From Solidesulfovibrio sp. DCME (GTDB lineage: Bacteria > Desulfobacterota > Desulfovibrionia > Desulfovibrionales > Desulfovibrionaceae): a stretch of DNA of 64,000 nucleotides. The notes beneath the pieces were generated by a model. It saw nothing but the letters and a program-made list of their open reading frames with translations, searched no databases and was not told the DNA's origin. The stretch's first letter is position 1. Each line of letters opens with the position of its first letter. Location of the stretch: contig NZ_CP188261.1 in the NCBI RefSeq assembly GCF_049995385.1, positions 1,311,724 through 1,375,723 of the forward strand, given 5' to 3'. Positions 13,849 to 32,249 of this stretch are shown here, one piece after another. Made by a program: the position numbers and the translations under genes.

Positions 13849-14287
13849 TCCGGGCCGGCCGGGCCTCGCCGCTTTTATAATGCCGGCAAGGCCGGTGTGA
13901 CCGGCCGGCGACTGGCTGGCTTGGCTTGTCCGGCCGCGCTTGCCCCGGGGCTTTGTCGCCCTTCGCACGGCGGGCCGGCCCCTGCACCGCCAGCCTCGGC
14001 GTCGTGGCCACGACCGGCCGCCCACCGCCAGACTTGGCGCCGTGACTACAGCCGGCCGCCCACCGTGGGCCTGGTCGTCGTGGCCACAACCGGCGCCTCC
14101 CTCGAGCCATGTCACTATGGCGGCGGCCGCCCGTCCGCCATGGCCTCACCGCTGGGCAACGGACGTTCCCCTTTCGAATAGTTTTCATTAGATTCACGAA
14201 TAATTCTTTTTTTTCGCTTGCCGCGTTGTCATGACGCCCCGGCTATCGTACGGTGATCCCCAAACCTTTAATTCAGGAGAGGGGACC

Positions 14288-14749
14288 ATGGGGCATGCCG
14301 GCAAACGGGGCGTTCGGATCGTCGCCGTCGTCGGCCTGGTCGCGGTAGGGCTGGGGCTTTTCCTGGCCCTGGGGCCGCCCGGGCTTCTGGCCAAATCCGA
14401 AACGCCCGATTTCTGCGCCTCCTGCCACGTCATGGAGGCCGAGTACGAGGCCTGGTTCCACCACGGCGCCCACAAGCGCATACGGTGCGTGGACTGCCAC
14501 CTGCCCAACGACAACCTGGCCGGGCATTACGTCTGGAAATCCATCGACGGCATGAAGGACGTCTTCGTCTTCCATTCCGGCCGGGTTCCCGACGACATCC
14601 GCATTTCGCAGCACGGCAAGGAGGTCGTTCAGGCCAACTGCATCCGCTGCCATGCCTCGGCCGTGGAGATGATCGATCAGGGGCGCTTCTGCTGGGACTG
14701 CCATCGCCGCGTCATGCACAAGCATGTGGGCGTGCCGCTGACCCGCTGA
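14288..14749 (+). CDS. nrfH: cytochrome c nitrite reductase small subunit NrfH (NapC/NirT tetrahaem)
   Basis: ATG 14288 after AGGAGA. N-terminal TM anchor. Four CxxCH motifs: CASCH, CVDCH, CIRCH, CWDCH. Confidence 0.9.
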   Translation: MGHAGKRGVRIVAVVGLVAVGLGLFLALGPPGLLAKSETPDFCASCHVMEAEYEAWFHHGAHKRIRCVDCHLPNDNLAGHYVWKSIDGMKDVFVFHSGRVPDDIRISQHGKEVVQANCIRCHASAVEMIDQGRFCWDCHRRVMHKHVGVPLTR

Positions 14750-14782
14750 TACGAAACCGGCATAACCGAGAGAGGAAGAGCA

Positions 14783-16729: not shown

Positions 16730-17806
16730 TCACTCCACGTGCAGGACCACGGCGAAAGCGTTGAACATGGCCCAGACCTGGCGCCCCTCGGCCAGTTCCA
16801 GTTCCCGGGCGCTCTGGGTGGTAATCAGCGCGCACAGCCGGGTGCCGTCGGACAGCACCACGATGACCTCCGAGGTCAGTTCGCCGATGCGGGTCAGTTC
16901 CACCGTGCCCAGAAACCGGTTGGTGGTGGTGGCCTTGGGCAGCTCCTCGCAGGCTTCGAGCACGACCCAGGGCGCCTTGATCTCGGCCGTGACGAAGCTG
17001 CCTTCGGTCACGCCCAGGTTTTTTAAGCTCTCGTTGGTGATCACCGAGGACACGGCGTGGCCGCCCAGGCTCTCCACCACGACCTGCGTCTGGATGTCGC
17101 CCTTGCGCACCTGGGCCACCCGGCCGAAGAAGGCGTTTCGGGCGCTGGTGCGGCGGGTTTCCCGGGCCAGGACTTGGCGTTCGACCTTGCGGCGCTGTTC
17201 CTCGGGCAGGTGCAGGAAGGCGGCGGTCAAATCGGCCGTGGAATGGCCCAGGATGCGCTGGACCACGGGCAGGGGCACGTCGTCGCGCAGCAGTTCCACG
17301 GCCCGGGAGCGGCGGATGGTGCTCGGGTTGACGAGTTCCTTGGTGAAGCCGCATTCCTCGGCCCGTTCGTAGAACTTGCGGCGCACATGGCCCTGGTCCA
17401 GGCGAAAGAGCAGGCCGCGCAAGGAGGCGTAGGCCGGGTTGGCGAAGACCTCGGCCAGGGCCTCGCCCAGTTCGGCCGGGATCTGCACCTCGCGGCCCTC
17501 GCCCTCGCCGTGGGCGTAGGTGACGGCCAGGGTGTCGAGGTTGATGTCGCGGCGGTCGTCGAGGCCCAGGACCTCGCCCAGGCGGGCGCCGGTGTGGCGC
17601 AGCATCAGGTAGATCAGGCGCACGCGGTTGCGGGAGACGGCCACGTCGGGCCGGCCGGCCCGGTCGGTCCAGGCGGAAAAGGCTTCGGACAGGCGCGTGA
17701 GCTCCAGGGTGTCCAGGAACTTCACGTCGTCGGGAACGGAAAAAATCCGGGCGGCCCTAAACCGCCCACCACCGGCATCGGGGCCGGTGTTTTTCGCATC
17801 AGGCAT
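16730..17806 (-). CDS. TunR-family regulator: XerC/D-like (catalytically degenerate) DNA-binding domain fused to two TOBE/Mop oxyanion-binding domains
   Basis: The N-terminal part resembles the tyrosine-recombinase fold (LMLRHTGARLGEV, RILGHSTADL). The HxxR arginine and a catalytic Tyr are not evident. The C-terminal part holds two TOBE-like units (RNAFFGRV...VTAEIKA and NRFLGTV...VWAMFNA). ATG 17806 has GGGGAG 5 nt upstream. Confidence 0.7.
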   Translation of the reverse strand: MPDAKNTGPDAGGGRFRAARIFSVPDDVKFLDTLELTRLSEAFSAWTDRAGRPDVAVSRNRVRLIYLMLRHTGARLGEVLGLDDRRDINLDTLAVTYAHGEGEGREVQIPAELGEALAEVFANPAYASLRGLLFRLDQGHVRRKFYERAEECGFTKELVNPSTIRRSRAVELLRDDVPLPVVQRILGHSTADLTAAFLHLPEEQRRKVERQVLARETRRTSARNAFFGRVAQVRKGDIQTQVVVESLGGHAVSSVITNESLKNLGVTEGSFVTAEIKAPWVVLEACEELPKATTTNRFLGTVELTRIGELTSEVIVVLSDGTRLCALITTQSARELELAEGRQVWAMFNAFAVVLHVE

Positions 17807-17916
17807 GGGAACTCCCCGTGGTTTGGACATGCGGCAAGTTTCCAACCAGGGCGAGGAAAGTCAAGCCTGGCGCGTCATAATCACGCGCCGCCAGGGCGTG
17901 ACCGGCCGCGGCCGGG

Positions 17917-18297
17917 TCAGGGTTTTTTGGCCACCACTTCCAGCTCCACCAGCACGTCCCGGGGCAGCCGGGCCACCTCGACGCAGGACCGGGCCGGGTA
18001 CGGCTCGTGGAAAAATTCCGCGTACACGGCGTTAATGGTGGCAAAGGCCTCCATGTCCTTGATGAACAGCGTGGATTTGACCACGTCGTCCAGGGTCAGG
18101 CCGGCGGCGGCCAGGATGGCGGCCACGTTTTTGATGCTCTGGCGGGCCTGCTCGGCCACGCCGCCGGGAACCACGGTTCCCGTGGCCGGGTCGATGGGGG
18201 TCTGGCCGGAGACGAACAGCAGGTCCCCGGCCCACACGCCCAGGGAATACGGGCCGATGGCGGCGGAGGCGTTGGCGGCGACGACGGATTTGGCCAT
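17917..18297 (-). CDS. ridA: RidA/YjgF-family reactive-intermediate deaminase
   Basis: 126 aa. AIGPYSLGVWAGDLLFVSGQTPIDPATG and the C-terminal ARSCVEVARLPRDVLVELE match the family signature. Confidence 0.88.
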   Translation of the reverse strand: MAKSVVAANASAAIGPYSLGVWAGDLLFVSGQTPIDPATGTVVPGGVAEQARQSIKNVAAILAAAGLTLDDVVKSTLFIKDMEAFATINAVYAEFFHEPYPARSCVEVARLPRDVLVELEVVAKKP

Positions 18298-18892: not shown

Positions 18893-20170
18893 TCAGGCCA
18901 GGGTCTCCACGAAGGCCTCCACCCGCGTCTTGAGCTGGCCGGCGTCCTCCATGCCGTAATCCGTCTCGAGGGCCAGGTAGGGCACCCCGGCCGCCTCCAT
19001 GGCCTTGCCCACCTTGATGGCCTCGTGGGCGTAGGGCTGGCAGAAAAGCAGGCCGTAGTGGATCACGCCGTCGGCCTTAAGCTCCTTGGCCAGGGCGGCG
19101 ATGTGCTCCAGGCGCTCGGTGTTGGGGGTGAAGCAGGCGCAGTCGATCTTCATGTAGCGGGAGGCCAGGGCGTCGAGCATGGCCTCGAGGTCGGCCGGGG
19201 CCTCGTCGGTCAAGTCGCGGGTGTTGCGTTCGCCGATGCAGGATTCCTCGCCCACGATGACCGCGCCCGAGCTCTCGATGAGGTAGGGCAGCTTCCAGTT
19301 GGGCACGGCCATGGGGCAGCCGGCCAGCAGCAGCCGGGGCGTGCCCTTGGGAGCCACGCCTTCCCCCCTGGCGATGCGGGCTTCCATCTCGTCGCACAGC
19401 TCGTTGACCTTGGCCGTGAAGCGGTCCGGGTCGTCGTAGAAGCTGATCTGGTTGACGAGCAGGGCGTCGCGGCCGGAGATGGGGGCCGGGTCGGCGGCGC
19501 GAAGCCTGGCCAGGCGCTGCAAGGCCCGGCGCTTGGCATTGACGCGTTTGGTCGCCGCGGCCAGGGTGTCGGCGGTGATGGCCTGGCCGGTGAGCGCCTC
19601 CAGAGCCTCCTTGTAGCGGACGAGTTCGGACCGAAACAGCGCAACGTCGCAGGGCGCCTTGCACTGGGGCACTTCCATGACGTGCATGGGCACGTGCTCA
19701 CCGAAGGCTTCGTAGGCTTTTTTCTTGCCGTCGCAGGTGGTCTCGCCCACCACCAGGTCGCAGGACTCGGTGTAGGGGCACAGCCTGGCCAGCTTGAAGC
19801 CGATAAACGACTTGATCAGGTCGCAGGTGTTGCGGGGCACGAGCAGTTCGGCCTTGTCCGTGCCGGCCTTGGCCCCGGCGCAAAGCCCCACCTGGACGGC
19901 GCCGGCGGCCAGGGTCAGCTCCTCGGGCACGAACACGCAAAACGTGCCCACGACCTTTTTCCCGGCCGCCTTGGCCTCCTGGATTTCCTTGATGCGCAGC
20001 CCATGGACCTCGGACAGCACGAAGTCCAGGTACTCCGCGCCCTTGAGCCGTCCCTGCTGGGACAGGTAGATGTCGCCGTAGAATTTCCCCAACACCGCGA
20101 GCAAGGCGTCGTGGGCCTCGAGGTCGAGGTCGAGGCGTTCCCACATGGCCGTATGGGCCGCGTCCGTCAT
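18893..20170 (-). CDS. 2-hydroxyacyl-CoA dehydratase/BcrC-BadD-HgdB family protein (double-cubane-cluster reductase-like)
   Basis: 425 aa with many conserved-looking cysteines (FCVFVPEE, NTCDLIKS, LCPYTESCDLVVGETTCDGKKK, LAGCPMA, ESCIGE, FCQPYA). The size fits stand-alone members of this family. Confidence 0.7.
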   Translation of the reverse strand: MTDAAHTAMWERLDLDLEAHDALLAVLGKFYGDIYLSQQGRLKGAEYLDFVLSEVHGLRIKEIQEAKAAGKKVVGTFCVFVPEELTLAAGAVQVGLCAGAKAGTDKAELLVPRNTCDLIKSFIGFKLARLCPYTESCDLVVGETTCDGKKKAYEAFGEHVPMHVMEVPQCKAPCDVALFRSELVRYKEALEALTGQAITADTLAAATKRVNAKRRALQRLARLRAADPAPISGRDALLVNQISFYDDPDRFTAKVNELCDEMEARIARGEGVAPKGTPRLLLAGCPMAVPNWKLPYLIESSGAVIVGEESCIGERNTRDLTDEAPADLEAMLDALASRYMKIDCACFTPNTERLEHIAALAKELKADGVIHYGLLFCQPYAHEAIKVGKAMEAAGVPYLALETDYGMEDAGQLKTRVEAFVETLA

Positions 20171-20381: not shown

Positions 20382-20792
20382 ATGGCCCAGATAGTGCATC
20401 TCGACGAGCATCGACGCTTGCGGGAGCCTGGGCGGGGGATGGCGACAAACCTTTCGCCGCGACGCCCGCGCTTAAGCGATCGAGACTTGTGGACCAGGGA
20501 TTATGGAGAAATCGATAACATCGTCTACGCCATAATGAAAATCAAGGAGATACTCGACTATCACCTCTACTACGACGACGTGTGGCCGTACCTGCTGCTC
20601 TCCTTTCTGGAGGCGGTGCACAACACCGGGCAAGGCGACGGCAAAGGGCTGTCGGGGACCGGGGCGTCGCTCAAGGACTACGTGGTCTCGGCCGTCACGC
20701 CGACCAACAAGCGCGACCTGTCCATGGTCCTGCTGCTGACCGACCTCATCGAGAAGTCCCCCAAGTACCGGGGCAGCTCGTCCTCGCCGTGA
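20382..20792 (+). CDS. hypothetical protein (136 aa), locally lower GC
   Basis: ATG preceded by GGGAGGGAGG. Codons in 20470-20600 are visibly more AT-rich than in neighbouring genes. No recognisable motif. Confidence 0.45.
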   Translation: MAQIVHLDEHRRLREPGRGMATNLSPRRPRLSDRDLWTRDYGEIDNIVYAIMKIKEILDYHLYYDDVWPYLLLSFLEAVHNTGQGDGKGLSGTGASLKDYVVSAVTPTNKRDLSMVLLLTDLIEKSPKYRGSSSSP

Positions 20793-20805
20793 CCAAAGCC
20801 CAAGC

Positions 20806-20834
20806 GGCGGCCGGAAGGGAACCTTCCGGCCGCC
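20806..20834 (+). terminator. 13-bp perfect hairpin after ORF 20382..20792
   Basis: ggcggccggaagg-gaa-ccttccggccgcc. There is no T-run, so its function as a terminator is uncertain. Confidence 0.4.
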
Positions 20835-20977
20835 GGCCAATCCAGGGCCACGGCGGGGGCGGAATCCCGGGAGTGCGTTAGGCACTTTCTTCATCCGTCT
20901 TGCCAACGACGGTTCCGTTTTGCTACTTCCTCGCGGTAGAATCCTCGCCGTCCGGGCCACGCCCGGGAGGAGGCACC

Positions 20978-21598
20978 ATGCCGCGCCCTTCGCTGCTCGC
21001 TTCGGTCCTTGCCGCCGGGCTGTGCCTGCCCCTGCCCCTGGCCGCGCCGGCCTGGGCCCAGTCGCAACAGGCCATGGCCCTGCGCCAGGAGATGGGTTAC
21101 GTGCCCTATACGCCGCCCGCCGCCTTCCTCGACGGCTTTTTCATCGCCGACGAGGCCAAGCCCGCCTTTCTCTTCGGCCCGGTGGCCGACTTCGTGGCCA
21201 AACGGGGCTGCCCCGTCACCTGGCTGGTGGAGGAGGGCGAACGCTCGCGCCTCACGAACCGCGATGCGGCCAATCCCCTGTTCGAATACACCCTGGCCCT
21301 GGAGGAAGACTGCCCGACCGGGGTCACCCACTATGTCTTCGTGGACCAAAGCGCCATGAACCCCAAGCAATGGCTCGAGTGGCGGCGGCAGTTCCACAAA
21401 AACAAGGCCGAGCCGGAATACGCCGACGCCGTGGCGCGCCTGGGCAAGGCCGTGGCCGACGGTTTCCCGGTTTCCGGGGAACTGCGCTTCGTGCTGCGCG
21501 ACGGCAACCTCGAGGCGGCCTCGCCCCAGGCCGTCCTGCCCACGGCCCTGGCCTGCCCGCCGCGCTACGACTGCGACGCCGGCAAGGCGCTTCCCTAA
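20978..21598 (+). CDS. secreted hypothetical protein (first gene of five-gene operon)
   Basis: Track ORF trimmed to ATG 20978 after GGGAGGAGG. Signal peptide MPRPSLLASVLAAGLCLPLPLAAPAWA. Four Cys residues in the mature part. Confidence 0.65.
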   Translation: MPRPSLLASVLAAGLCLPLPLAAPAWAQSQQAMALRQEMGYVPYTPPAAFLDGFFIADEAKPAFLFGPVADFVAKRGCPVTWLVEEGERSRLTNRDAANPLFEYTLALEEDCPTGVTHYVFVDQSAMNPKQWLEWRRQFHKNKAEPEYADAVARLGKAVADGFPVSGELRFVLRDGNLEAASPQAVLPTALACPPRYDCDAGKALP

Positions 21599-21611
21599 TC
21601 CAACGGACGGT

Positions 21612-22640
21612 GTGGTCATGGCCTTGCGTCGTACGGGTCCCGGGCGCGCCGAGCAGGCGGTTGCCACGGCCGTGGTGTTGCTTTTGGCCGCCGCGGCCGT
21701 GTGGCTGGGCCTGCGCCAGTCGCAACTGTCGCCGGCCGTGCTCGTGGCCCTCAGTCCCCCGCCGCCGCCGGCTGCCGTCGGCGCCGCCTCGGGCCGGGCC
21801 TTCGCCACGGCCGCCTTCCTGGACGCACTGGCCGGGGCCACGCCCGCCGGCCCGGTGGAGAGCTACGACCCCGAGACCCTCTCGGACCGCATCGACGGCA
21901 AGGCCGAGCTGTACCTGGCGGCCAATTTCAAGGAAATGTCCGTGCGCCCCTTCAGCCTGCCGGACGGCGCCCGCCTGGACGCCTCCGTCTACGCCCAGGC
22001 CGCGCCCCGGGACGCCTACGCCGTCCTCAGCTCCCAGCGCCGCCCCGGCGCCGAGCCGAATGCCCTGTCCCCGGACGCCTACGCCACCCAAAACGCCCTC
22101 TACTTCACCAAGGGCCCGTACTACGTCGAGCTTTCCGCCGACCGGGCCGACCCGGCCACGCGCCAGGCCCTGGCCGCGGCGGGCCAGGCGCTGTACGACC
22201 GGCTCCCGGCCGGGGACAAACCGGGCGCAAACGCGCCGCCCGATCCCAGGACGCTTTTCCCGGCCGAGGGCCTGGACAGCCAGAGCCTGCGCCTGGCCGC
22301 TGCCGACGCCATGGGCATGGCCGGGTTTTCCAACGTCTACACGGCCGATTACGCCCTGGCCGCCGGCGCGGCCACGGCCTTTCTGGCCGCGCGCGACACG
22401 CCCCGGGCGGCGGCGGCCGAGGCCGGGGCGTTCGCCGATTTCCTGGTTCAAAACGGCTATGCCCGCGAGGCGGCCGACGGCCTGCCCCAGGGCGCCGTCT
22501 TCCTCGGCGCCCCCGGTTCCTTCGAAATCATCTGGACCCGGGGCGGGCTGCTGGTCGGCGTCCACGACGCCACCAGCCGCGAGGCCGCCCTGGAACTGGC
22601 CGGGACACTCGAGGCCCACCTCAAGGACGTGACGCCATGA
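21612..22640 (+). CDS. membrane-anchored hypothetical protein
   Basis: 342 aa with one N-terminal TM segment (AVATAVVLLLAAAAVWLGL) and no recognisable motif. It lies 13 nt after the preceding stop. Confidence 0.6.
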   Translation: MVMALRRTGPGRAEQAVATAVVLLLAAAAVWLGLRQSQLSPAVLVALSPPPPPAAVGAASGRAFATAAFLDALAGATPAGPVESYDPETLSDRIDGKAELYLAANFKEMSVRPFSLPDGARLDASVYAQAAPRDAYAVLSSQRRPGAEPNALSPDAYATQNALYFTKGPYYVELSADRADPATRQALAAAGQALYDRLPAGDKPGANAPPDPRTLFPAEGLDSQSLRLAAADAMGMAGFSNVYTADYALAAGAATAFLAARDTPRAAAAEAGAFADFLVQNGYAREAADGLPQGAVFLGAPGSFEIIWTRGGLLVGVHDATSREAALELAGTLEAHLKDVTP

Positions 22641-23677
22641 AAGAGCGCGCGGACAGGGCCGCCCGGACGGCCCAGGGCGCCGGGCCGCTTTCGCGCCGGG
22701 ATTTTTTGCGGCGCCTGGCCGGGGCCGGCGCGGCCGCCGTGGCCGTGACCGGCCTCGGGCTGTCGTTTCGCGACCCGGCCGGGCCGGCGGCCGTGGAACA
22801 GACCCGGATCCTTTCCACGCTGGGCGATTTCGCCGCGCCCGCGCCCCAGGCCGGCAAACCGCGCCTGGCCGCGGTCCACGGCACGGACCGGGCGGCCATG
22901 TTCGCCGCCGGTGTTGCGGCCCTCGGCGGCATGGCGGCCTTTGTCGCCAAGGGCGACACGGTGCTCGTCAAGGTCAATGCCGTCATCGCCTCGCCGGCCA
23001 TCCTCGGCGCCACGACCAACCCCGAACTGCTGGCCGCCGTGGCTGCCGCCTGCCGCCAGGCCGGGGCGGCCCGGGTGCTGGTCACGGACAACCCCATCAA
23101 CAACCCGGAGAGCTGCTTCGAGGTCACGGGCCTGGCCGACGCCGCCAAGGCGGCCGCAGCCAAAATCATCGTGCCGCGCCCAGCCCTTTTCACGCCGCTG
23201 ACCCTGCCGGGCGGGCGGCTCATTCGCGACTGGCCCGTGCTGGCCGGGGCCTTCGAGGGCGTGACCAAGGTCATTTCCCTGGCCGTGGTCAAGGACCACG
23301 CCCGGGCCGGGGCGTCCATGACGCTCAAGAACTTCTATGGGCTGCTCGGCGGGCGGCGCAACATCTTCCACCAGGATATAAACGGCATCATCGCCGAACT
23401 GGGGGGACTGCTGCGCCCGACCCTGTGCGTGCTCGACGGCACGCAGGTCATGATGACCAACGGCCCGACCGGCGGCTCGCTGTCCGACCTGCGCGCCGCC
23501 GGGGTCATGTACCTCTCGGGGGACCCGGTGGCCACGGACGTGCTCGGGGCGGTGCTGCTTGGCCGCAGCCCGGCCGACCTGCCCTACCTGGGCCTGGCCG
23601 CGGCCGCCGGCGTCGGCACGGCCGACGTGGCAAGCCTTTATCCCGTCACCGTCCACACCGAACCGGCGGCGGGGTAG
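22637..23677 (+). CDS. Tat-signal DUF362-domain protein
   Basis: ATG 22637 overlaps the previous stop (ATGA). Twin-arginine leader LSRRDFLRRLAGAGAAAVAVTG. The body (VLVKVN...NPELL..., LDGTQVMMTNGPTGG) fits the DUF362 pattern. Confidence 0.7.
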   Translation: MKERADRAARTAQGAGPLSRRDFLRRLAGAGAAAVAVTGLGLSFRDPAGPAAVEQTRILSTLGDFAAPAPQAGKPRLAAVHGTDRAAMFAAGVAALGGMAAFVAKGDTVLVKVNAVIASPAILGATTNPELLAAVAAACRQAGAARVLVTDNPINNPESCFEVTGLADAAKAAAAKIIVPRPALFTPLTLPGGRLIRDWPVLAGAFEGVTKVISLAVVKDHARAGASMTLKNFYGLLGGRRNIFHQDINGIIAELGGLLRPTLCVLDGTQVMMTNGPTGGSLSDLRAAGVMYLSGDPVATDVLGAVLLGRSPADLPYLGLAAAAGVGTADVASLYPVTVHTEPAAG

Positions 23678-23681
23678 GGGT

Positions 23682-25412
23682 ATGCGCATCGTCACAGCCA
23701 GGCGCCTGAGCCAGGCCTTCTTCCTGCTGGTTTTCCTCTGGTTTTGCGTCGTGGCCACGGTGGGCGACGCCTTGTGGCAGCTGCGCGGCTGGCCCATCAA
23801 CTGGCTCCTCTCCCTGGACCCCCTGACGGCCGTGGCGACGTTTTTATCCACGGGCACGCTCTACGCGGCGCTTGGCTGGGGCCTGGCCGTACTCGTCCTG
23901 ACCTTTTTCATCGGCCGGTTTTTCTGCGGCTTCGTCTGCCCGTTGGGAACGCTCAACCAGTTGACGGGGTATCTCTCCCGGCGCCGGGTCACGACCGAAG
24001 CCCGGGTGGCGGGCAACGCCCCCAGCCGCTTCCAGGGGATCAAATACGTGCTGCTGGCCTTTTTCCTGGCCGCCGCCGCCCTGGGCAGCCTGCAAACCGG
24101 GCTGCTCGACCCGCTGCCGCTGGTATTTCGCAGCGTCAACCTGGCCGTGCTGCCCCTGGTCGACCCGGGCCGCTTCGGCATCCACGGCGAAGGCCGCTTT
24201 TATGACGGCGCCTGGGTGCTGGGGCTTATTTTCCTGGCCATCCTGGCCGGCAACCTCTGGCGGCCCCGGTTTTTCTGCCGTTTCCTGTGCCCGGCCGGGG
24301 CGCTGATGGGCCTGTCGAGCCGGCTGGTGCCCTGGCGCATCGGCAAGGCCGACGCGAAAGCCTGCGGCACCTGCCGGCGCTGCGAGGCCTACTGCGAGGG
24401 CGGCTGCCGGCCGTCCGGGGAACTGACGGTTGGCGAGTGCGTGCTGTGCCTCAACTGCCTGGACGTCTGCCCCACGGGCCGCATCGGCTTCGCCACCCGG
24501 CCTTCGGCCTGTGGCGAGCGGGCCTTGCCGGACTTTTCCCGGCGCGGGGCCGTCTTTGCCCTGGCCGCCGGGGCGGTGGCCGCGCCGCTGTGGCGGGTGA
24601 GCGGGGCCAGCGCCCTGGGGCGCGACCCGGCGCTCATCCGGCCGCCGGGCTCGCTGGACGAGGCGCGGTTTCTTTCCCGCTGCATCCGTTGCGGCCAGTG
24701 CATGCGGGTGTGCCCGTCGGCGGTCATCCAGCCGGCCGTGACCGTCGCCGGCGCGGCCGGGCTGTGGACGCCGACCCTCAATTACCGCCTGGGCCGGGCC
24801 GGCTGCCTGCAAAACTGCATCGCCTGCGGCCAGGTCTGCCCCACGGCGGCCATCCGGCCCTTTTCCCTGGAGGAAAAGCTCGGGCGCGGCGATTTCGCCG
24901 CCGTCGGCCCCCTGCGCCTGGGCACGGCCTTCGTCGATCGCACCCGCTGCCTGCCCTGGGCCATGGGCCGGCCCTGCATCGTCTGCCAGGAGGTCTGCCC
25001 GGTCAGCCCCAAGGCCATCGGCGTGGGCACGGTCTTCGAGCCGGTGGCCGGCGGCGCCGTATCCGTCACCGATGCCCGGGGGGCGGCGTTGACCCTGGCC
25101 GGTGCACCGGCAACCGGCCGCAACCTGGGCAGCGGCGACTATTTCCTGCGTCCGCTCGGGCTGCCCGACACGGCCGCCGTGCGGATCGTCTCCCTGGCCG
25201 GGGCGGTGCTTACCCTGGAAAAGCCCTTGCCGGACCTGGGCCAGGGGCGAAAGGCCGAGGTCGTGGTGCGCCTGCAACAGCCCCACATCGATCCGGCGCG
25301 CTGCGTCGGCTGCGGCATGTGCGAGCACGAATGCCCGGTGTCCGGGCTGCGGGCCATCCGCGTGACCAGCGAGAACGAGTCGCGTTCGGGCCCGGGCCGG
25401 ATGCTGGCCTGA
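23682..25412 (+). CDS. NapH/MauN-like membrane polyferredoxin (multi-[4Fe-4S])
   Basis: Track ORF trimmed to ATG 23682, 4 nt after the previous stop. The N-terminal multi-TM domain carries CGFVCPLGT and CRFLCPAGA. Further motifs: CGTCRRCEAYC, CVLCLNCLDVCP, CIRCGQCMRVCP, CIACGQVCP, CIVCQEVCP, CVGCGMCEHECP. Confidence 0.8.
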   Translation: MRIVTARRLSQAFFLLVFLWFCVVATVGDALWQLRGWPINWLLSLDPLTAVATFLSTGTLYAALGWGLAVLVLTFFIGRFFCGFVCPLGTLNQLTGYLSRRRVTTEARVAGNAPSRFQGIKYVLLAFFLAAAALGSLQTGLLDPLPLVFRSVNLAVLPLVDPGRFGIHGEGRFYDGAWVLGLIFLAILAGNLWRPRFFCRFLCPAGALMGLSSRLVPWRIGKADAKACGTCRRCEAYCEGGCRPSGELTVGECVLCLNCLDVCPTGRIGFATRPSACGERALPDFSRRGAVFALAAGAVAAPLWRVSGASALGRDPALIRPPGSLDEARFLSRCIRCGQCMRVCPSAVIQPAVTVAGAAGLWTPTLNYRLGRAGCLQNCIACGQVCPTAAIRPFSLEEKLGRGDFAAVGPLRLGTAFVDRTRCLPWAMGRPCIVCQEVCPVSPKAIGVGTVFEPVAGGAVSVTDARGAALTLAGAPATGRNLGSGDYFLRPLGLPDTAAVRIVSLAGAVLTLEKPLPDLGQGRKAEVVVRLQQPHIDPARCVGCGMCEHECPVSGLRAIRVTSENESRSGPGRMLA

Positions 25413-25528
25413 GGTATTTTCCCCGCGACGCCGCAGGCCTGGCGGGGGTGGAAGCGGGATGTGTTGTCCGCGGCGCAAAGGCGGAGGCTTCGACCGCGCC
25501 GGAACCCCGGCGCCCAAGGAGGACGGCG

Positions 25529-26752
25529 ATGACGGCGGAAAAAAAGGCCGGGCTCACCCGGCGTGACCTCATAAGGACCGTGGGCCTGGGCGGGCTGGCC
25601 GTGGCCGGGCTGGGCCTTGGCGCCGGCCAGGCCCGGGCCGCCGGCGAACCGGAAAAGGCCGCCCCCGGGCCCATGCCCAAACGCAAACTCGGCACCACCG
25701 GGCTCGAGGTCTCCATCCTCAACCTCGGCGGCATGTTCGACACCATCAACAACCAGCTCCTGCTCAAGCAGGCCCTGGCCTGGGGCGTGAATTTCTGGGA
25801 CACGGCCGAGGCCTACGGCAACGGCATGTCCGAGGAGGGCTACGGCCGGTTTTTCGCCCGCAACCCCGAGGCCCGCAAGCAGGTCATCCTCACCACCAAG
25901 CTCGTGCCCAAGGGCGGCAAGTTCGATGAGCGCCTGGACGCGGCCCTTTCCAGGCTCAAGACCGATACGGTGGATATCTTCTATGTCCACGGCATCTCGG
26001 GCATCGCCGAAATGGACGGCCAGATGCGCGACTGGGCGGCGGCCAAGAAAAAAGCCGGCAAGATCAAGTTTTTCGGCTTCAGCACCCACTCCAACATGGA
26101 GGACTGCCTGCTCGGCGCGGCCGGGCTCGACTGGATCGACGCGGTGATGCTCTCCTACAACTTCCGGCTCATGCACGAGGAGAAGATGCGCCGGGCCATG
26201 GCCGCCTGCGCCAAGGCCGGCATCGGGGTCGTGGCCATGAAGACCCAGGGCGGCGGCCCGGTCAAGACCGACAGCCAGGCCGAACTGGACATGGCCGGCC
26301 GGTTCCTGGACAAGGGCCTGACCGACAAGCAGGCCAAGCTCATGGCCGTGTGGCAAAACCCGGACATCGCCTCGGCCTGCTCCCAGATGCCCAACCTGAC
26401 GATCCTTTCGGCCAACGTGGCCGCCGCCCGCGAGGCCACGGCCCTGGCCCGGGCCGATTTCGAGGCCCTGGCCACCTTTGCCCAGGCCACCCACGGCGAC
26501 TACTGCGCCGGTTGCGCCGAGGTGTGCGCCACGGCCCTGGGCGGCGGCGCGCCCGTGGCCGAGGTCATGCGGGCCATGATGTACGCCCGCGACTACGGCG
26601 AGATCGCCCTGGCCCGCGAACTCTACGCCAGCCTGCCCGAAGCCCTGCGCCGCGACCCGGGCTCCCTCGATTTCGCCCGGGCCGAGGCCGCCTGCCCGCG
26701 CGGCTTGTCCATCGCCGCCATCGTCGGCGAGGCCGCCAGGCTGCTGGCCTGA
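25529..26752 (+). CDS. Tat-signal aldo/keto reductase with C-terminal Fe-S motif (COG1453-like)
   Basis: ATG 25529 after AAGGAGGA. Leader LTRRDLIRTVGLGGLAVAGLGLGAGQARA. AKR core motifs (WDTAEAYGNG, VDIFYVHG). The tail carries YCAGCAEVC...ACPRG. Confidence 0.8.
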   Translation: MTAEKKAGLTRRDLIRTVGLGGLAVAGLGLGAGQARAAGEPEKAAPGPMPKRKLGTTGLEVSILNLGGMFDTINNQLLLKQALAWGVNFWDTAEAYGNGMSEEGYGRFFARNPEARKQVILTTKLVPKGGKFDERLDAALSRLKTDTVDIFYVHGISGIAEMDGQMRDWAAAKKKAGKIKFFGFSTHSNMEDCLLGAAGLDWIDAVMLSYNFRLMHEEKMRRAMAACAKAGIGVVAMKTQGGGPVKTDSQAELDMAGRFLDKGLTDKQAKLMAVWQNPDIASACSQMPNLTILSANVAAAREATALARADFEALATFAQATHGDYCAGCAEVCATALGGGAPVAEVMRAMMYARDYGEIALARELYASLPEALRRDPGSLDFARAEAACPRGLSIAAIVGEAARLLA

Positions 26753-26759
26753 CCACCGG

Positions 26760-26799
26760 CCGTGGGGCGCGGCCAGGCCACGCCCCACGGCGGAATTTT
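26760..26799 (+). terminator. rho-independent terminator of the five-gene operon
   Basis: ccgtggggcg-N11-cgccccacgg forms a 10-bp stem, followed by cggaatttt. Confidence 0.6.
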
Positions 26800-27328: not shown

Positions 27329-30300
27329 ATGATGCGAAGTGCTGGCATCCTTGCACGAGTTGTCCTGATCCTGTGCCTGGCCATCCTTGGCGGCGGCGTT
27401 TCCATGGCTGTCGGCGCGACCGGTCCGGAGGGCGCCGACGCGCTTGCGGCGCGGGTCGCCCTGGCCCGGCTGCCCCTGTATTTCACCGAAAACGCCGGCC
27501 AGTGGGACGCCCGGGTCCGGTTCAAGGCCCGCACCGCCAGCGGCGAACTGTTTGTCGCCGACGACCATGTCGCGCTGACCGTGCCCGAGGACCGCGCCAG
27601 TGCCCGGGCCCTTTTCCTGCGCCCCCTGGGGGCGCGGCCGCAGGCCAAGCCCCGGGCGGGCGCGGCCACCGGGGCGAAAATGCACTTCTACCAGGGCAAT
27701 GACCCGGCCAAATGGCGCACCGACGTGGCCGCCTATGACGCCGTGGTCTACGACGCCGTCTATCCGGGGATCGACCTGCGCTACCACGGCGACAACCGGC
27801 TGCTGGAATACGACTTCGTGGTCGCGCCCGGGGCCGACCCGGCGCGCATCCGCATGGGCCTTGCCGGCGCGGCGGCCGTGCGCCTCGACCCGGACGGGGC
27901 CATGATCGTGACCCTGCCCGGCGGCCGGGAACTGCGCCAGGCCGCGCCCGTGCTCTACCAGGAACGCGACGGTGTCCGGGAGCCGGTTGCCGGGGCGTTC
28001 GTCCTGGAGCAGGCCGGCGAGGAACAGGCCTTCGGCTTCCGCGTGGCCGCCTATGACCGGACGCGGCCGCTGGTCATCGACCCGACCCTAACCTATTCCA
28101 CCCTGCTTGGCGGAAGCCTCAACGACTACGCCTACGGCGTCACCACCACCGGTACGGGGGCGGCCGCCCTGGCCGTGGTGGTCGGCACGACCTACTCCAG
28201 CGACTTTCCCCAGACCCCGACCAAAACCACCACCAAGGGCGACATCTTCATCAGCGGCCTGTCCCTGGCCGCCGACAGCCTCGCCTTTTCCAATACCCTC
28301 GGCGGCAAGGACATCGACGAGGCCCGGGCCGTGGCGGTCAACGCCAGCGGCGTGTATGTGACCGGCTATACCAAATCCACGGATTTCCCCACGAGCACCG
28401 CCCTGTGGCCGGCGCTTTCGGGCACCAAGGAAGATGCCTTCGTCCTGGCCGTGGACACGGCCACGGGCAAGACCCTGCAGTTTTCCACCTATTTCGGCGG
28501 AACAGGCTCGGATTTCGGCAACGCCATCGCGCTCGATTCCTCGGGCAATGTCTATGTGGCCGGCACCTCCGCCTCCACGGACCTGCCCGTCAAAAACGCC
28601 CTGTACGCGTCCAACAGCGGCGGCAAGGACGGCTTTGTCCTCAAGCTCAACGCCGCCGGCAGCGTGGTGGCCTACGCCACCTACTTCGGTGGGGAAAAAG
28701 ACGACGAAATAAACGCCCTGGCCATTTCCAGCGCAGGCGACGCCATCGTCGGCGGATTGACCCTGTCCACCAAGCTGCCCGTGAAACACGCCATCCAGAG
28801 CACCATCGGTTCGACCACGGGCGACGGATTTTTCGCCCGCATCAACCCGACCTGTACGGAACTGGTGTACTGCTCCTACCTTGGCGGCAACGGCGTGGAC
28901 GAGGTCAACGCCATCGCCCTCGACGCCTCGGGCAATCCGGTGCTGGCCGGGTCGACCAAGTCGACCAATTTCCCCGTGAAAAACGCCATCACCTCCAGCC
29001 TGGCCGGCGGCACGGACGCGTTTTTGGCCCTGGTCGACGTTTCCGGCCGGTACCTGCGTTTCGCGACCTATTTCGGCGGCGCCGGCGAGGATGTGGCCAC
29101 GGCCGTGGCCGTGGACAAGGGCAGCGATGGCGGGCTGTCCTACCTCTATGTCGGCGGCTCGACCACCTCGGCCAACCTGCCGGCCTACAACGCCTGGTCC
29201 GCCGCGACGGCCGCTTCCGTAACCCAGAACGGCTACGGCTACCGTGGCGCCGGCGACGGCTTCGTGGCCAAGTTCGAGCCCCATGGCGCCCGGGTCGTCA
29301 ATGCGAGCTACCTCGGCGGACCGGGGCTGGACGCGGTCAATGCCCTGGCCACGCCGGCCAGCGGCACCCGCCTCGTCTTCGTTGCCGGCCAAAGCACGCC
29401 GGCCAGCACCTCCGGCGATCCCGCAACCACCCGCTTCCCCACCACGGCCGGCGTGCTGGCCACCGATCCCGCGGGGCAGGCCGACGCGTTCGTGGCCAAG
29501 ATGACCGAATCCAGCCTGTATCCCACCGACGTGCCGACCCTGAGCCTGAGCTTTCCCAGCGCCGTGCCGCTGGCCGGAACGACCGTCAACGTGAATATGA
29601 CCTATGCGGATGCGGGCACGGCCTCCAACATCAGCGCCTTCTCCACGACCATCGGCTACGATCCGGCGGTGCTGGAAGTCGCGGCGGCGGAAAAGAGTTC
29701 GGCCGCGGCCTACAGTGCCTACTCCCGGACCTGGCAGGACGACGGCAACGGCAAGTTGCGCTTCCTCATGTATGTCGACGATGCCTCGCCGACGGCCCTG
29801 ACGGCCGGCGTCGTGGCCACGGTGACCTTCCGCGTGAAATATACGGACGGCTCGACGGTGAGCCGGGTGACGAACACGCCCTCGGCCACCAATACCTCGG
29901 GCCTGGACACGCCCATAAGCGGCTTCCCGGGCGTGGTGCAGCTCACCCAGCGCTGCGGACAGCTCGGGGATTGCGATTGCAGCGGCACTGTGCAGCTGTG
30001 GGAGGTCCAGCAGTCCATTATCGCTGTCCTGGCCGGTTCGAGCAACATGTGCTTCGCCTCGAACTACACCAGCATTACCGCCGCCGACTTGCAACTGATC
30101 GCCAACAACCACCTGTTCCGCACGGCGGGGCGTGGCGTTGCGGCGGCCGGGTTGTGTCCCGCCGCCGGAGAGGCCTCGGCCAGGCTGCGGCCCGGTACGG
30201 CGCAGGTCGTCGACAACGCCTTGAAGATCCCCCTCGTGCTGGCCGGCAGCGGGGGAACCATCTCCACCATGATCGCCGACGTGGCCTACGACGCCAGCCG

Positions 30301-30610
30301 GTTCACCGGAGCCACGGTCGCGGCCGGACCGTCGGCGGCGGCGGCCGGGAAATCCGTGTCCGGCTCCGTGGTCGCGCCCGGAACACTGCGCCTGGTCGTG
30401 TTCAGCCTGGAGGACCGGCGGACCATGGCCGACGGCGAGGTCGCCCGTATCGCCCTGGTTCCGGCCTCGGGGGCAAACGGCCCGCGCGGCAGCCTCGGCA
30501 TATCGGCCTCGGCCGCCACGCCAGACGCCCAGGATATCGCCGTGGCCTCGGGCAGCTATCCCCTGCAAAACGGCCTGGGGCCGGCGCTGCAACTGTTGAT
30601 GGACCCGTAA
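27329..30610 (+). CDS. giant secreted SBBP beta-propeller-repeat protein with cohesin-like and dockerin-like C-terminal modules
   Basis: Track ORF trimmed to ATG 27329 after AAGGAGG. Signal peptide present. The N-terminal domain (LPLYFTENAGQW...) is typical of SBBP proteins. There are 7-8 repeats ending in S(T/S)DFP, STDLPVKNA and STNFPVKNA. C-terminal modules are detailed in the findings. Confidence 0.75.
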   Translation: MMRSAGILARVVLILCLAILGGGVSMAVGATGPEGADALAARVALARLPLYFTENAGQWDARVRFKARTASGELFVADDHVALTVPEDRASARALFLRPLGARPQAKPRAGAATGAKMHFYQGNDPAKWRTDVAAYDAVVYDAVYPGIDLRYHGDNRLLEYDFVVAPGADPARIRMGLAGAAAVRLDPDGAMIVTLPGGRELRQAAPVLYQERDGVREPVAGAFVLEQAGEEQAFGFRVAAYDRTRPLVIDPTLTYSTLLGGSLNDYAYGVTTTGTGAAALAVVVGTTYSSDFPQTPTKTTTKGDIFISGLSLAADSLAFSNTLGGKDIDEARAVAVNASGVYVTGYTKSTDFPTSTALWPALSGTKEDAFVLAVDTATGKTLQFSTYFGGTGSDFGNAIALDSSGNVYVAGTSASTDLPVKNALYASNSGGKDGFVLKLNAAGSVVAYATYFGGEKDDEINALAISSAGDAIVGGLTLSTKLPVKHAIQSTIGSTTGDGFFARINPTCTELVYCSYLGGNGVDEVNAIALDASGNPVLAGSTKSTNFPVKNAITSSLAGGTDAFLALVDVSGRYLRFATYFGGAGEDVATAVAVDKGSDGGLSYLYVGGSTTSANLPAYNAWSAATAASVTQNGYGYRGAGDGFVAKFEPHGARVVNASYLGGPGLDAVNALATPASGTRLVFVAGQSTPASTSGDPATTRFPTTAGVLATDPAGQADAFVAKMTESSLYPTDVPTLSLSFPSAVPLAGTTVNVNMTYADAGTASNISAFSTTIGYDPAVLEVAAAEKSSAAAYSAYSRTWQDDGNGKLRFLMYVDDASPTALTAGVVATVTFRVKYTDGSTVSRVTNTPSATNTSGLDTPISGFPGVVQLTQRCGQLGDCDCSGTVQLWEVQQSIIAVLAGSSNMCFASNYTSITAADLQLIANNHLFRTAGRGVAAAGLCPAAGEASARLRPGTAQVVDNALKIPLVLAGSGGTISTMIADVAYDASRFTGATVAAGPSAAAAGKSVSGSVVAPGTLRLVVFSLEDRRTMADGEVARIALVPASGANGPRGSLGISASAATPDAQDIAVASGSYPLQNGLGPALQLLMDP

Positions 30611-30689: not shown

Positions 30690-32249
30690 TCAGCGGGCGA
30701 GGAGCGTGGAAACGATGTGGATCATGGCCTGGTTGGCCGCTGTGGCCGTGGAAACGGTGGTTGCGGCCTGGTAGCGCCGGCCGGCCGGATTGGCCTCCGT
30801 CCCGCCGGACAGCATGGGCCAGGTGGCTGTGGCGAAAAAGGATGGCGTGGCTGTGAGGTAGAGGCTGGCCGGCGCGTCGGATTCCGGGATGGTGACCACG
30901 GCGCTGGCCGCATCGGTCACGACGTTGCCGGAAAGGACCGTATCCGTGATGCCCTCGGCCATGGAAAGAGGGCCGCCGGCCAGCAGCAGGTTGCCGAGGG
31001 CCGCCTGGCCATTGGAGCCGTCCATGATTTCCAGGCCTTCCTTGGCCACCACGTTGCGCAAAAACACATTGCCCGGGCCGGCCGGCCCCCAATAGTCGGT
31101 GTCGTCCACCTCTTCGACCATGTTGCCCTCGAAGAGGTTGCGGAAGGGATAGTGGCCGTGGACCGAGAGGTCGCAGGGCGTCCAGGCCGTGGACTCGCAT
31201 TTGCGGATGGTCGAGAAGTTGTAGCCGAAGACGTTGCCGTTGGCCCCCTGGCTGACGACCATGGCGTGGCGCAGGGTGGAAAAGACGTTGTTTTGCACCA
31301 GGCAGTCCGAGGTGTGGCGGCCGAGGGTCACGCCGTAGCCTCGGCCGCCGTCGCCGTAGTCATGGGAATACTGGAAGGAACTGTCCGTCACCTCGATGGC
31401 GGCCGACGACTCGATGGAGACGTGGGCGGCCACGGTGTAGCGGCTTTCCACCCGGCGGACCCAGCAGTTGGCCGCGTACTTGAAATGGATGGTCTCGCCG
31501 CCGTCGGTGCCGGGGTCCTCGCGGGAGATGGCCAGGTCCTCGATGCCGACATGCTGGCCCAGGCGGTAGACCCGGGCCCGGGCCGACCGGGCCGTGGCGA
31601 AGCCGATGCGCAGGGGCCGGTCGAGGCTGACGGCATCGCCCGAAACGGCCGTGACCCTGACGAACTGGCCGACCACGCTCTGCGCCCAGTCCTGGTTCCA
31701 CTCGGGGTCGGTGTACATGACGGCCGCGTCGTTTTGCTGCTCGACCTCGATCCAGTCGCCCACGGCCATGGAGGCGGCGTCGGCGAGGGTTATGGCCGTG
31801 TCGCCCGTGGCGGCGTCCCTGGACAGCGCCACCCAGCTGCGGGAATTGTAGGTGGTGAAATCGAGGCAGGGATCGGATGCTCCGGCCAGGTTGAAGACGA
31901 GCTTGCTGGAGGCGGCCCCGGCGCCGCGAAGCACCAGGCCGCTTTTGAGGGAAAGGGAGCGCGTGATCCGGTAGGTTCCGGCCGGCACGGACAGGACGCC
32001 CGGGCTGGCCAGGGCGGCCATGGCGCTTTCGAAGGCGGCGGTGTCGTCGGTTGTGCCGTCGCCGGTAGCGCCGAAATCGCGCACGGACAGGGTCTGGACG
32101 GGATCGGGCGGCGTGGTGCGCAGCCCGGCCCGGTCCCAGGCGGCGGCCGTATCGGCAAAGGCCGCGGCGGTGGCGGGAAGCCGCAAGGCGCCCAGGCACA
32201 GGCCGGCCAGCAGGAATAGCACGAGGGGGAATCGGGAAGTGCCACGCAT
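30690..32249 (-). CDS. secreted right-handed beta-helix protein (pectate-lyase-superfamily / glycoside-hydrolase-like)
   Basis: Signal peptide MRGTSRFPLVLFLLAGLCLGALRLPATAAA. The VRDFGATGDGTTDDTAAF motif is typical of the pectate_lyase_3 N-terminus. Repetitive beta-helix-like segments follow. Confidence 0.7.
   Translation of the reverse strand: MRGTSRFPLVLFLLAGLCLGALRLPATAAAFADTAAAWDRAGLRTTPPDPVQTLSVRDFGATGDGTTDDTAAFESAMAALASPGVLSVPAGTYRITRSLSLKSGLVLRGAGAASSKLVFNLAGASDPCLDFTTYNSRSWVALSRDAATGDTAITLADAASMAVGDWIEVEQQNDAAVMYTDPEWNQDWAQSVVGQFVRVTAVSGDAVSLDRPLRIGFATARSARARVYRLGQHVGIEDLAISREDPGTDGGETIHFKYAANCWVRRVESRYTVAAHVSIESSAAIEVTDSSFQYSHDYGDGGRGYGVTLGRHTSDCLVQNNVFSTLRHAMVVSQGANGNVFGYNFSTIRKCESTAWTPCDLSVHGHYPFRNLFEGNMVEEVDDTDYWGPAGPGNVFLRNVVAKEGLEIMDGSNGQAALGNLLLAGGPLSMAEGITDTVLSGNVVTDAASAVVTIPESDAPASLYLTATPSFFATATWPMLSGGTEANPAGRRYQAATTVSTATAANQAMIHIVSTLLAR

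Follow-up and report, generated by a model that had tools for sequence, protein, structure and literature searches.

In the NapGH systems of Escherichia coli and Wolinella succinogenes, the four-helix iron-sulfur (Fe-S) membrane protein NapH and the tetra-cluster ferredoxin NapG, which is exported through twin-arginine translocation (Tat), carry electrons between the quinol pool and an enzyme of the periplasm, the client being a molybdoenzyme. Aldo/keto reductases (AKRs) normally use NAD(P)H, which the periplasm lacks. Here we analyze a stretch of 64,000 nucleotides from Solidesulfovibrio sp. DCME (G+C about 70%; the whole stretch is called the window below), in which a cassette of five genes (20978-26752, + strand) combines a membrane polyferredoxin of NapH-NapG type with a DUF362 protein and an AKR-fold protein, both having Tat leaders. 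The conserved residues of the AKR-fold protein suggest that its hydride carrier is probably a tethered nickel-pincer cofactor.

The polytopic polyferredoxin (PFD) family has been described as a NapH-NapG fusion that is inserted into the membrane by Sec and Tat together, as was shown experimentally, the fifth helix requiring Tat in reporter fusions (Tooke et al., eLife 2017, PMC5449189). NphT is a hydride transferase of the AKR superfamily that depends on the nickel-pincer cofactor NPMN: Lys200 tethers the cofactor, His144 ligates the nickel, Ile199 lies packed against the pyridine ring, and the acid/base chemistry falls to the AKR tetrad (Semersky et al., Nat Chem 2026, PMC13524815). The same paper gives the His/Lys motif as diagnostic of NPMN-dependent AKRs and absent from those dependent on NAD(P)H, reports that hundreds of prokaryotes make the nickel-pincer cofactor yet have no LarA, and makes no mention of Fe-S, Tat or the periplasm (PMC13524815).

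An earlier note on this DNA had described the five co-directional open reading frames (ORFs), and all of them are present on the + strand: gene 1 (20978-21598), encoding a secreted protein of 206 amino acids with a Sec-type signal peptide (AWA/Q); gene 2 (21612-22640), a DUF6599 protein anchored in the membrane by its N-terminus, with its body in the periplasm; gene 3 (22637-23677), the DUF362 protein with a Tat leader; gene 4 (23682-25412), the PFD; and gene 5 (25529-26752), the AKR-fold protein with a Tat leader and a single C-terminal [4Fe-4S] domain. The spacings given in that note were also found, namely 13 nt between genes 1 and 2, an ATGA overlap of genes 2 and 3 (22637-22640), 4 nt between genes 3 and 4, and 116 nt between genes 4 and 5. 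Public gene calls on identical contigs match these coordinates except for gene 2, for which they use the ATG at 21618, six bases downstream, so that the gap to gene 1 becomes 19 nt; the public records annotate all five genes only generically. The G+C content at third codon positions is 0.86-0.91 in the five frames, which indicates that these are the coding frames. Searches with hidden Markov models (HMMs) bore out the domains that had been named: DUF362 (PF04015) in gene 3 at 128 bits (cut-off 24, with 199 of 200 profile positions covered), Aldo_ket_red in gene 5 at 98 bits, and in gene 4 Fer4_5 (PF12801) twice, along with NapH- and NapG-like matches.

The distribution of the cassette was analyzed by a genome scan with one genome per species, using an alignment of gene 3 homologues as the query; at least 522 relatives were found, and the best 80 loci were kept. 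Their gene content was read by TBLASTN and custom HMMs, and 51 of the 80 loci had enough flanking DNA. The order gene 1-DUF6599-DUF362-PFD-AKR was identical in 42 of these 51 fully flanked loci, which makes the observation more than chance, and five others differed only in having no detectable gene 1; the AKR thus stands behind the PFD in 47 of 51 loci. Synteny of the orthologues, which the earlier note had left to a wider comparison, is therefore strong. The carriers belong to Desulfovibrionales, Desulfobaccales, Syntrophobacterales, Syntrophales and other Thermodesulfobacteriota, and include two metagenome-assembled genomes (MAGs) labelled Acidobacteriota. Genes 3, 4 and 5 retain 55-70% identity across the carrier orders, indicating strong constraint; within the genus, gene 3 is 92% identical to a protein from a Solidesulfovibrio MAG, and gene 5 is 100% identical to an AKR recorded for Solidesulfovibrio sp. 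DCME. Clustering of all ORFs of the 80 loci revealed no additional neighbour conserved in more than 11 loci, the recurrent ones being efflux and sensor genes, and the cassette therefore appears to be self-contained. The five genes probably make up one operon for a membrane-bound, periplasm-facing redox complex. In one MAG of Desulfobaccales type (L029:10947-13594), two tandem AKR copies follow the PFD, the second of them being broken by a frame change.

Hydropathy peaks of the gene 4 protein lie at approximately residues 12-30, 55-82, 120-140 and 175-195, with a positive-inside charge distribution. Two CX3CP motifs, CGFVCPLGT and CRFLCPAGA, each stand behind a helix, and these motifs and the six ferredoxin-type Cys clusters are all present as previously listed. 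What the earlier note missed is an internal twin-arginine motif (residues 287-288). The region in question (24531-24599, +) consists of S-R287-R288-G (residues 286-289), a weakly hydrophobic fifth transmembrane helix, TM5 (residues 289-304), and Arg305; the RR pair is found in 58 of 59 orthologues, and the Kyte-Doolittle maximum of TM5 is 1.42 versus 1.6-2.3 for TM1-4. TM5 is predicted to be a Tat-dependent helix that would place the NapG-like half in the periplasm. The domain that follows (24600-25409, +) starts with LIRPPGSLDE and has four Cys motifs (CxxCxxCxxxCP, CxxxCxxCxxxCP, Cx9CxxCxxxCP and CxxCxxCxxxCP), and NapG/MauM matches cover residues 303-448. The predicted topology is that of four Sec-type transmembrane helices and a Tat-type fifth helix, with two cytoplasmic and four periplasmic [4Fe-4S] motifs.

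This architecture was compared by BLASTP with the PFD of delta proteobacterium MLMS-1 (Q1NSB0), the sequence of which was taken from the supplement of Tooke et al. Residues 28-308 of the gene 4 protein align colinearly with it (34% identity, E 5e-35), and the RR motifs are superposed. Both proteins have five helices, two CX3CP motifs, cytoplasmic ferredoxin motifs and a four-motif NapG-like domain, and in both the RR pair directly precedes a weakly hydrophobic fifth transmembrane segment with positive charge behind it. Unlike the MLMS-1 protein, the gene 4 protein has an insert of about 90 residues between the third and the fourth periplasmic cluster motifs. It is also found here in a five-gene cassette, whereas the published study covered PFD biogenesis only, without function, partner or gene context (PMC5449189).

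The term NapH-like, used for gene 4 in the earlier note, holds for the NapH-type half but falls short of the whole protein, which is a NapH-NapG fusion of the dual Sec/Tat PFD family; the Tat-exported Fe-S partner is thus built in. The same two modules are separate in NapGH and fused in gene 4, and while the client of NapGH is a molybdoenzyme, the clients here would be the DUF362 and AKR proteins, without napA, napB or napC. No nap genes were found in the cassette or its flanks. Orthology with NapGH was rejected, as the scores are far below the equivalog cut-offs for both NapH (63-66 bits; 63.5 against a cut-off of 234) and NapG (68 against 269). Gene 4 works like NapGH but is not NapGH. Apparent natural splits of gene 4 into NapH and NapG were discarded as frameshifts in long-read MAGs.

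Relatives of the MLMS-1 PFD outside the five-gene cassette also have a DUF362 neighbour. In Desulfurivibrio alkaliphilus (L084:6055-8680) and a Nitrospiraceae MAG (L086:6108-8545), the PFD gene has directly upstream of it a previously undescribed DUF362 gene of about 300 codons, the product of which bears an RR leader at its N-terminus, the loci consisting otherwise of housekeeping genes; in a Dissulfurispiraceae MAG, an RR-bearing DUF362 gene lies 3.3 kb upstream of the PFD gene, with toxin-antitoxin and other genes between them. A metagenome scan with a PFD alignment yielded 80 more loci, and counts were made on those 31 that have flanks of 2.5 kb or more to either side. DUF362 was found in 29 of these 31 loci, DUF6599 in 18, the AKR in four, and gene 1 in none. 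Two loci, L115 and L109, hold all four main families, with the order DUF362-PFD-DUF6599-AKR in L115 and the AKR on the opposite strand in L109; in both of them RR leaders are found on the DUF362 and AKR proteins, and Fe-S motifs (two full ones) on the AKR. The retention of these gene sets despite rearrangement is good evidence of a functional unit.

The PFD and the Tat-dependent DUF362 protein are a widespread, ancient core pair, and the cassette in the window is a Desulfobacterota-specific elaboration of it, DUF6599, the AKR and gene 1 being successive lineage-specific additions. The conserved core of the module described in the earlier note is the PFD with DUF362, and not the AKR. It is very likely that these genes encode a periplasmic complex centred on the PFD.

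The Tat leaders that had been proposed for genes 3 and 5 were tested with the curated model TIGR01409 (cut-off 16.7 bits), and both exceed its cut-off. The gene 3 leader (22691-22771, +; SRRDFLRRLAGAGAAAVAVTGLGLSF), which contains SRRDFLRRLAG, scores 21.3 bits; its RR pair is invariant in homologues, and distant DUF362 partners have an RR leader too. The gene 5 leader (25553-25642, +; LTRRDLIRTVGLGGLAVAGLGLGAGQARA), which contains TRRDLIRTVG, scores 19.7 bits, with the RR pair in all 47 orthologues whose N-terminus is covered. Both proteins show the features of Tat substrates, i.e. an S/T-R-R-x-F/L-L-K motif, a moderately hydrophobic h-region and an AxA site.

In the AlphaFold model of the gene 5 protein, with a predicted local distance difference test (pLDDT) score of 75, an AKR barrel is followed by a helical Cys-bearing domain, and Foldseek matches it to AKRs (E 7e-15). 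D91, Y96 and K124 of the catalytic tetrad D91/Y96/K124/H154 are found in 58 of 58 orthologues, and H154 in 56. The C-terminal Fe-S motif (26504-26698, +) reads C326-x2-C329-x3-C333 ... C389-P, each Cys being present in 58 of 58 orthologues; it contains the YCAGCAEVC...ACPRG sequence, and with it the description of gene 5 as a Tat leader, an AKR core and a C-terminal CxxCxxxC...CP motif is confirmed in all parts. The four-Cys motif is what is left of the 2x[4Fe-4S] ferredoxin domain that the distant AKR relatives of L115 and L109 carry.

The closest solved relative of the gene 5 protein found by profile search is NphT (9yeb_A, PDB 9YEB; E 8e-23, residues 49-319). In hhalign, the comparison with NphT gave a probability of 99.1 and an E-value of 4.6e-19 over 257 columns, versus 95.7 and 1e-8 for human AKR1B1. 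His187 (codon 26087-26089, +) aligns with His144, the nickel ligand of NphT, while Met237 and Lys238 (codons 26237-26242, +) align with Ile199, which packs on the pyridine ring, and Lys200, the covalent thioamide tether of NPMN. Two alignment methods agree on placing H187/M237/K238 onto H144/I199/K200, and the three residues are invariant in 58 of 58 orthologues and are also present in the AKRs of L109 and L115. NphT and the gene 5 protein are thus alike in the AKR barrel, the tetrad, the nickel-ligand His, the tethering Lys and the hydrophobic residue preceding it. NphT is a 290-residue cytoplasmic monomer, encoded beside larBCE, that catalyzes a redox-neutral disproportionation; the gene 5 protein, in contrast, bears a Tat leader and, at its C-terminus, an additional [4Fe-4S] domain of about 100 residues, its partner is a membrane polyferredoxin, and no lar genes are nearby. 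These alignments suggest that the gene 5 protein probably binds a nickel-pincer cofactor of the NphT type (NPMN). The AKR-like partner in L115 (L115:5803-7032) has retained the His and Lys of NphT type along with two complete ferredoxin motifs and has lost the Asp and Tyr of the tetrad (FWHKAERW versus FWDTAEAY); it may be a non-catalytic or differently catalytic subunit.

The DUF362 protein encoded by gene 3 has an invariant motif, K219-D-H221 ... K231-N ... H245-Q, and all DUF362 variants examined keep K-[D/H]-H-x9-K-N ... H. DUF362 belongs to Pfam clan CL0471, which is also the clan of the LarA N-terminal domain, and the invariant H-x9-K-x13-H pattern of gene 3 resembles H174/K184/H200 of LarA. 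We take this resemblance as a lead only. Clear equivalents of LarA R75 and H108 were not seen in gene 3, a relaxed Pfam scan of DUF362 gave no DUF2088 match, and LarA enzymes are cytoplasmic racemases or epimerases without a redox partner, whereas DUF362 proteins are exported and paired with Fe-S proteins. Foldseek matches of the DUF362 model were discarded, being generic Rossmann folds with E > 1e-3. In the literature searched, no paper links DUF362 (PF04015) to nickel or gives it a function. As judged from the motif and the clan, the gene 3 protein may bind a nickel-pincer cofactor that is the same as that of gene 5 or related to it, but we put the chance of this a little below even.

Scanning of all fetched loci for Lar signatures identified five loci from peat or bog metagenomes (L132, L146, L147, L159 and L160) in which larE-larC-larB stand directly upstream of PFD-DUF6599-DUF362-DUF362 on the same strand. 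The candidate operon in L146 (2746-10218, one strand) comprises larE, larC, larB, the PFD, DUF6599 and two DUF362 paralogues; its Lar proteins are above the NCBIfam equivalog cut-offs (LarE, 315 bits with a cut-off of 150; LarC1, 200 with 90; LarC2, 142 with 50; LarB, 294 with 175), and the lar genes of the other four loci were confirmed by phmmer. None of the five loci has an AKR, LarA or an unassigned ORF of LarA size, and DUF362 is therefore the likely user of the cofactor there. The PFD and DUF362 proteins of this lineage are 60-64% identical to those of L115, a locus with an AKR. In these lar-PFD-DUF6599-DUF362 loci we see a candidate operon of nickel-pincer users that would form a new family.

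The earlier note had proposed that the AKR, the DUF362 protein or both are fed through Fe-S clusters rather than by a nicotinamide cofactor. This was examined by a profile alignment of gene 5 with AKR1B1, in the sequence of which the landmark residues stood at the expected numbers. At the level of sequence, the canonical nicotinamide contacts are not kept in gene 5: N160 is replaced by T186, Q183 by a hydrophobic residue (L/F/M), Y209 by M237 and S210 by K238, while S159 is retained as S185; in a manual alignment, K262 and R268 have no basic equivalents in CSQMPNLTILSAN. The replaced contacts agree with the proposal, but the AKR is probably not without a cofactor: given the His/Lys motif, a nickel-pincer cofactor is the likelier hydride carrier, and the [4Fe-4S] cluster would link it to the electron transfer chain.

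A version without any organic hydride carrier in the AKR and/or DUF362 protein, in which electrons of the PFD would reach the substrate directly via the [4Fe-4S] cluster of gene 5, as in the TIM-barrel-plus-cluster enzyme IspG, and the tetrad would serve acid/base chemistry only, is unlikely. It could account for the four invariant Cys in a separate C-terminal domain, for the replaced nicotinamide contacts, for the missing lar genes near the cassette (in the window and within 8 kb in 80 genomes) and for the L115 partner that has kept two Fe-S motifs without the tetrad Asp and Tyr. However, an empty pocket would leave unexplained why the residues aligned with the nickel ligand and the tether Lys of NphT, His187 and Lys238, are invariant in 58 orthologues; moreover, the closest solved relative is an NPMN enzyme and not a cluster-dependent barrel, and lar genes are joined to the homologous system in one lineage.

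The replaced contacts also bear on a second alternative, namely that gene 5 encodes a conventional AKR with a tight, non-exchanging NAD(P)(H), exported by Tat like the glucose-fructose oxidoreductase of Zymomonas and working in a redox-neutral or ping-pong mode, the Fe-S cluster being structural or regulatory. Of the four AKR1B1 residues that contact the nicotinamide ring, three (N160, Q183 and Y209) are replaced, the basic residues at Lys262 and Arg268 have no counterparts in the manual alignment, and the gene 5 family resembles NphT far more closely than it does the AKRs dependent on NAD(P)H. Thus, although the catalytic tetrad is intact, homologues are labelled NADP-dependent oxidoreductases by Pfam and NCBI, and Tat export of an NADP-loaded enzyme has a precedent according to the citation of Halbig et al. 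1999 in PMC7317946, we rank bound NADP low because of the replaced pocket residues and consider it quite improbable.

The reading of the locus as a periplasm-facing Fe-S redox module, proposed in the earlier note, stands: the three points on which that note had staked it, namely the Tat leaders, the synteny and the nicotinamide contacts, all turned out to support it. For the preferred form of this reading, with a nickel-pincer cofactor, to which we give somewhat better than an even chance, we suggest the following mechanism. The cofactor, derived from nicotinic acid, would be made in the cytoplasm by LarB/E/C and tethered to Lys238 of the gene 5 protein, its nickel being ligated through His187, and the folded holo-protein would then be exported by Tat; the gene 3 protein, too, would probably be exported as a nickel-pincer holo-enzyme. 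Making and attachment of the cofactor in the cytoplasm would explain both the Tat leader and how an AKR could function without free NAD(P)H. The substrate, an alcohol, aldehyde or carbonyl compound in the periplasm, would exchange hydride with the bound cofactor via the AKR tetrad, and the cofactor would be recycled in one-electron steps through the [4Fe-4S] cluster of gene 5 and the NapG-like clusters of gene 4, from which electrons would pass to the NapH-like membrane part and then to the menaquinone pool and/or cytoplasmic carriers. DUF6599 and the gene 1 protein may be anchor, scaffold or substrate-binding parts. With Fe-S recycling, a hydride shuttle that is redox-neutral would become a net oxidoreductase, in the oxidative or the reductive direction. 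Provided that the cofactor is bound, such Fe-S-coupled recycling is reasonably probable; it is also the most speculative step of the mechanism. In logic only, the arrangement is analogous to MsrPQ (YedYZ), where a membrane electron donor serves a Tat-exported, cofactor-loaded periplasmic catalytic subunit (with Mo and heme), and to glucose-fructose oxidoreductase, where a nicotinamide-type cofactor, NADP in a Rossmann fold, is loaded before Tat export.

Several observations weigh against the nickel-pincer reading. We know of no precedent for one-electron recycling of the nickel-pincer cofactor by Fe-S clusters. No lar gene was found in the 64-kb window, either by Pfam on nearly all remaining ORFs or by phmmer with LarE, LarC and LarB of L146, nor within 8 kb of the cassette in 80 genomes. 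The PFD and DUF362 proteins of the lar-linked lineage are only about 37% identical to those of genes 4 and 3, and the five lar-linked loci probably represent one lineage (Lar proteins scoring 416-670 bits versus 524-978 for self), so that the adjacency of lar and PFD genes may be a single evolutionary event. DUF362 did not match LarA by HMM, PDB profile or fold search, and its AlphaFold2 model is poor (13 close homologues, pLDDT 60). W218 and Y219 of NphT are not strictly kept in gene 5, which has R258 and F259 at these positions by hhalign. Separate transcription of gene 5 is possible because a gap of 116 nt with a weak hairpin precedes it. Only NphT itself has been shown to bind NPMN (PMC13524815), and the motif is predictive but no proof.

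It is very unlikely that the neighbours are not one system at all, with the PFD and DUF362 as one unit and an independently transcribed AKR, or with non-functional Tat leaders and cytoplasmic soluble proteins. The 116-nt gap, the hairpin with a T run at the end of gene 4 and the lack of an AKR in most PFD loci (present in 4 of 31) would fit such a view. Against it, 47 of the 51 genome loci with full flanks have the AKR behind the PFD, and in distant lineages the AKR turns up again beside PFD, DUF362 and DUF6599 in other arrangements, each time bearing an RR leader and Fe-S motifs. The RR pairs show no variation and exceed the cut-off of the curated Tat model, and a soluble periplasmic Fe-S AKR needs an electron partner, for which the PFD is the sole candidate encoded nearby.

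The earlier note had the operon bracketed by a hairpin and a terminator, and both hairpins exist. The upstream one (20805-20835, +) has 14-nt arms (20805-20818 and 20822-20835) that are 100% complementary and a 3-nt loop; it sits right behind the stop codon of a preceding ORF of 136 codons and sets the operon's 5' boundary, and it probably serves the gene before it as a terminator. The downstream one (26759-26791, +), which begins 7 nt past the gene 5 stop codon, is GC-rich and has 16-nt arms (26759-26774 and 26776-26791) with 94% complementarity. A terminator scan did not score it as an intrinsic terminator, and only a weak T run (TTTT) follows, so that it is terminator-like but not a proven terminator. 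Neither a sigma-70 scan nor a sigma-54 pattern search found a promoter upstream of gene 1. An 8-bp hairpin at 25393-25421 overlaps the gene 4 stop codon and is followed by AGGTATTTTC; as the sequence reads, it could be a partial terminator or attenuator in the 116-nt gap that sets the ratio of gene 4 to gene 5 expression.

Genes 1 and 2 had been described as having no recognizable domain. This is correct for gene 1, which has no Pfam or NCBIfam match, but not for gene 2, which matches DUF6599 (PF20244) at 144 bits. Their localization was described correctly: the gene 1 protein has a Sec-type signal peptide and is secreted, and the gene 2 protein is membrane-anchored, with a conserved N-terminus of positive charges followed by a transmembrane helix. 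Gene 1 is conserved among 58 orthologues, its family is small (73 representative clusters among 1.84 billion), and it is absent from all 31 metagenomic PFD loci; it is a small orphan family limited to the Desulfobacterota form of the cassette. A PDB profile search with DUF6599 gave no match, and no paper on this family was found in the literature searched.

The ORF of 136 codons preceding the cassette (20382-20792, +) has coding-type third-position G+C (0.82), lower G+C at codon positions 1 and 2, and no family match. Divergent to the cassette, upstream, is a gene for a 425-residue protein of the HGD-D family (18893-20170, -; 2-hydroxyglutaryl-CoA dehydratase D-component-like), and beyond it are a 144-residue protein without assignment and a RidA-type protein (17917-18297), an arrangement that is not kept beside the cassette elsewhere. 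Further upstream, a public gene call (16730-17845, -) gives a 358-residue protein of unusual architecture, with Phage_integrase and TOBE (molybdate/oligosaccharide-binding) domains, and about 5 kb from the cassette an NrfH-NrfA pair (14231-16249, +; Cytochrom_NNT and Cytochrom_C552) encodes a cytochrome c nitrite reductase. The segment 9160-13093 (-) encodes two ATPases of CbiA/MinD type that have 4Fe-4S ferredoxin motifs embedded in them, a NifU-like scaffold and an Mrp/NUBPL-type ATPase; these genes, 8-12 kb from the cassette, may be an Fe-S delivery set.

Directly downstream, 27329-30610 (+) encodes a secreted protein of about 1090 residues with DUF7948, SBBP beta-propeller repeats and a cohesin domain, and also near the cassette are genes for a pectate-lyase-like protein (30690-32249, -) and an RCC1-repeat protein (35814-37121, -). 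MacB-type ABC efflux components, HlyD/RND membrane-fusion proteins and a BaeS/CpxA-like sensor kinase are found at 32482-35691 (-), and 10-11 of the 80 genome loci, from several unrelated lineages, also have them no more than 8 kb away from the cassette. These recurring neighbours could hint at a context of envelope stress or detoxification, or could be due to chance.

In summary, the parts of the cassette are of known kinds (NapGH-like modules, NphT-like AKRs, the LarA clan), and the combination of Tat export, Fe-S coupling and a membrane polyferredoxin is new. The statement of the earlier note that no characterized system has such a composition holds in the literature searched, in which we found nothing on periplasmic Fe-S AKRs or PFD partners, and nothing useful on COG1453/COG2006 or on lar genes in Desulfovibrio. 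The cassette holds a substantial chance of new chemistry. Tentatively, and with the balance leaning against it, the cassette and the wider PFD-DUF362 module may be the first extracytoplasmic and the first electron-transfer-coupled nickel-pincer enzymes, a respiratory nickel-pincer oxidoreductase that takes the place of NAD(P)H outside the cell. Extended to the large DUF362 family, whose members are often fused to ferredoxin domains, this would make that family a new class of Fe-S-coupled nickel-pincer enzymes.

If this is true, the PFD family, known so far only as a model of membrane-protein biogenesis, gains a partner, the Tat-dependent DUF362 protein, and a context, and the presence of an AKR in a compartment without NAD(P)H would be explained by a tethered nickel-pincer cofactor exported via Tat. 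A candidate family (DUF362), an operon (larECB-PFD-DUF6599-DUF362) and specific residues would be at hand for nickel-pincer users, and part of the genomes that have larBCE without LarA would be accounted for. New chemistry would lie in linking a hydride-carrying nickel cofactor with Fe-S clusters and the quinone pool, and the genes would define a novel kind of respiratory module in the periplasm, with a wide distribution among sulfate reducers, syntrophs, Nitrospirota and peat bacteria.

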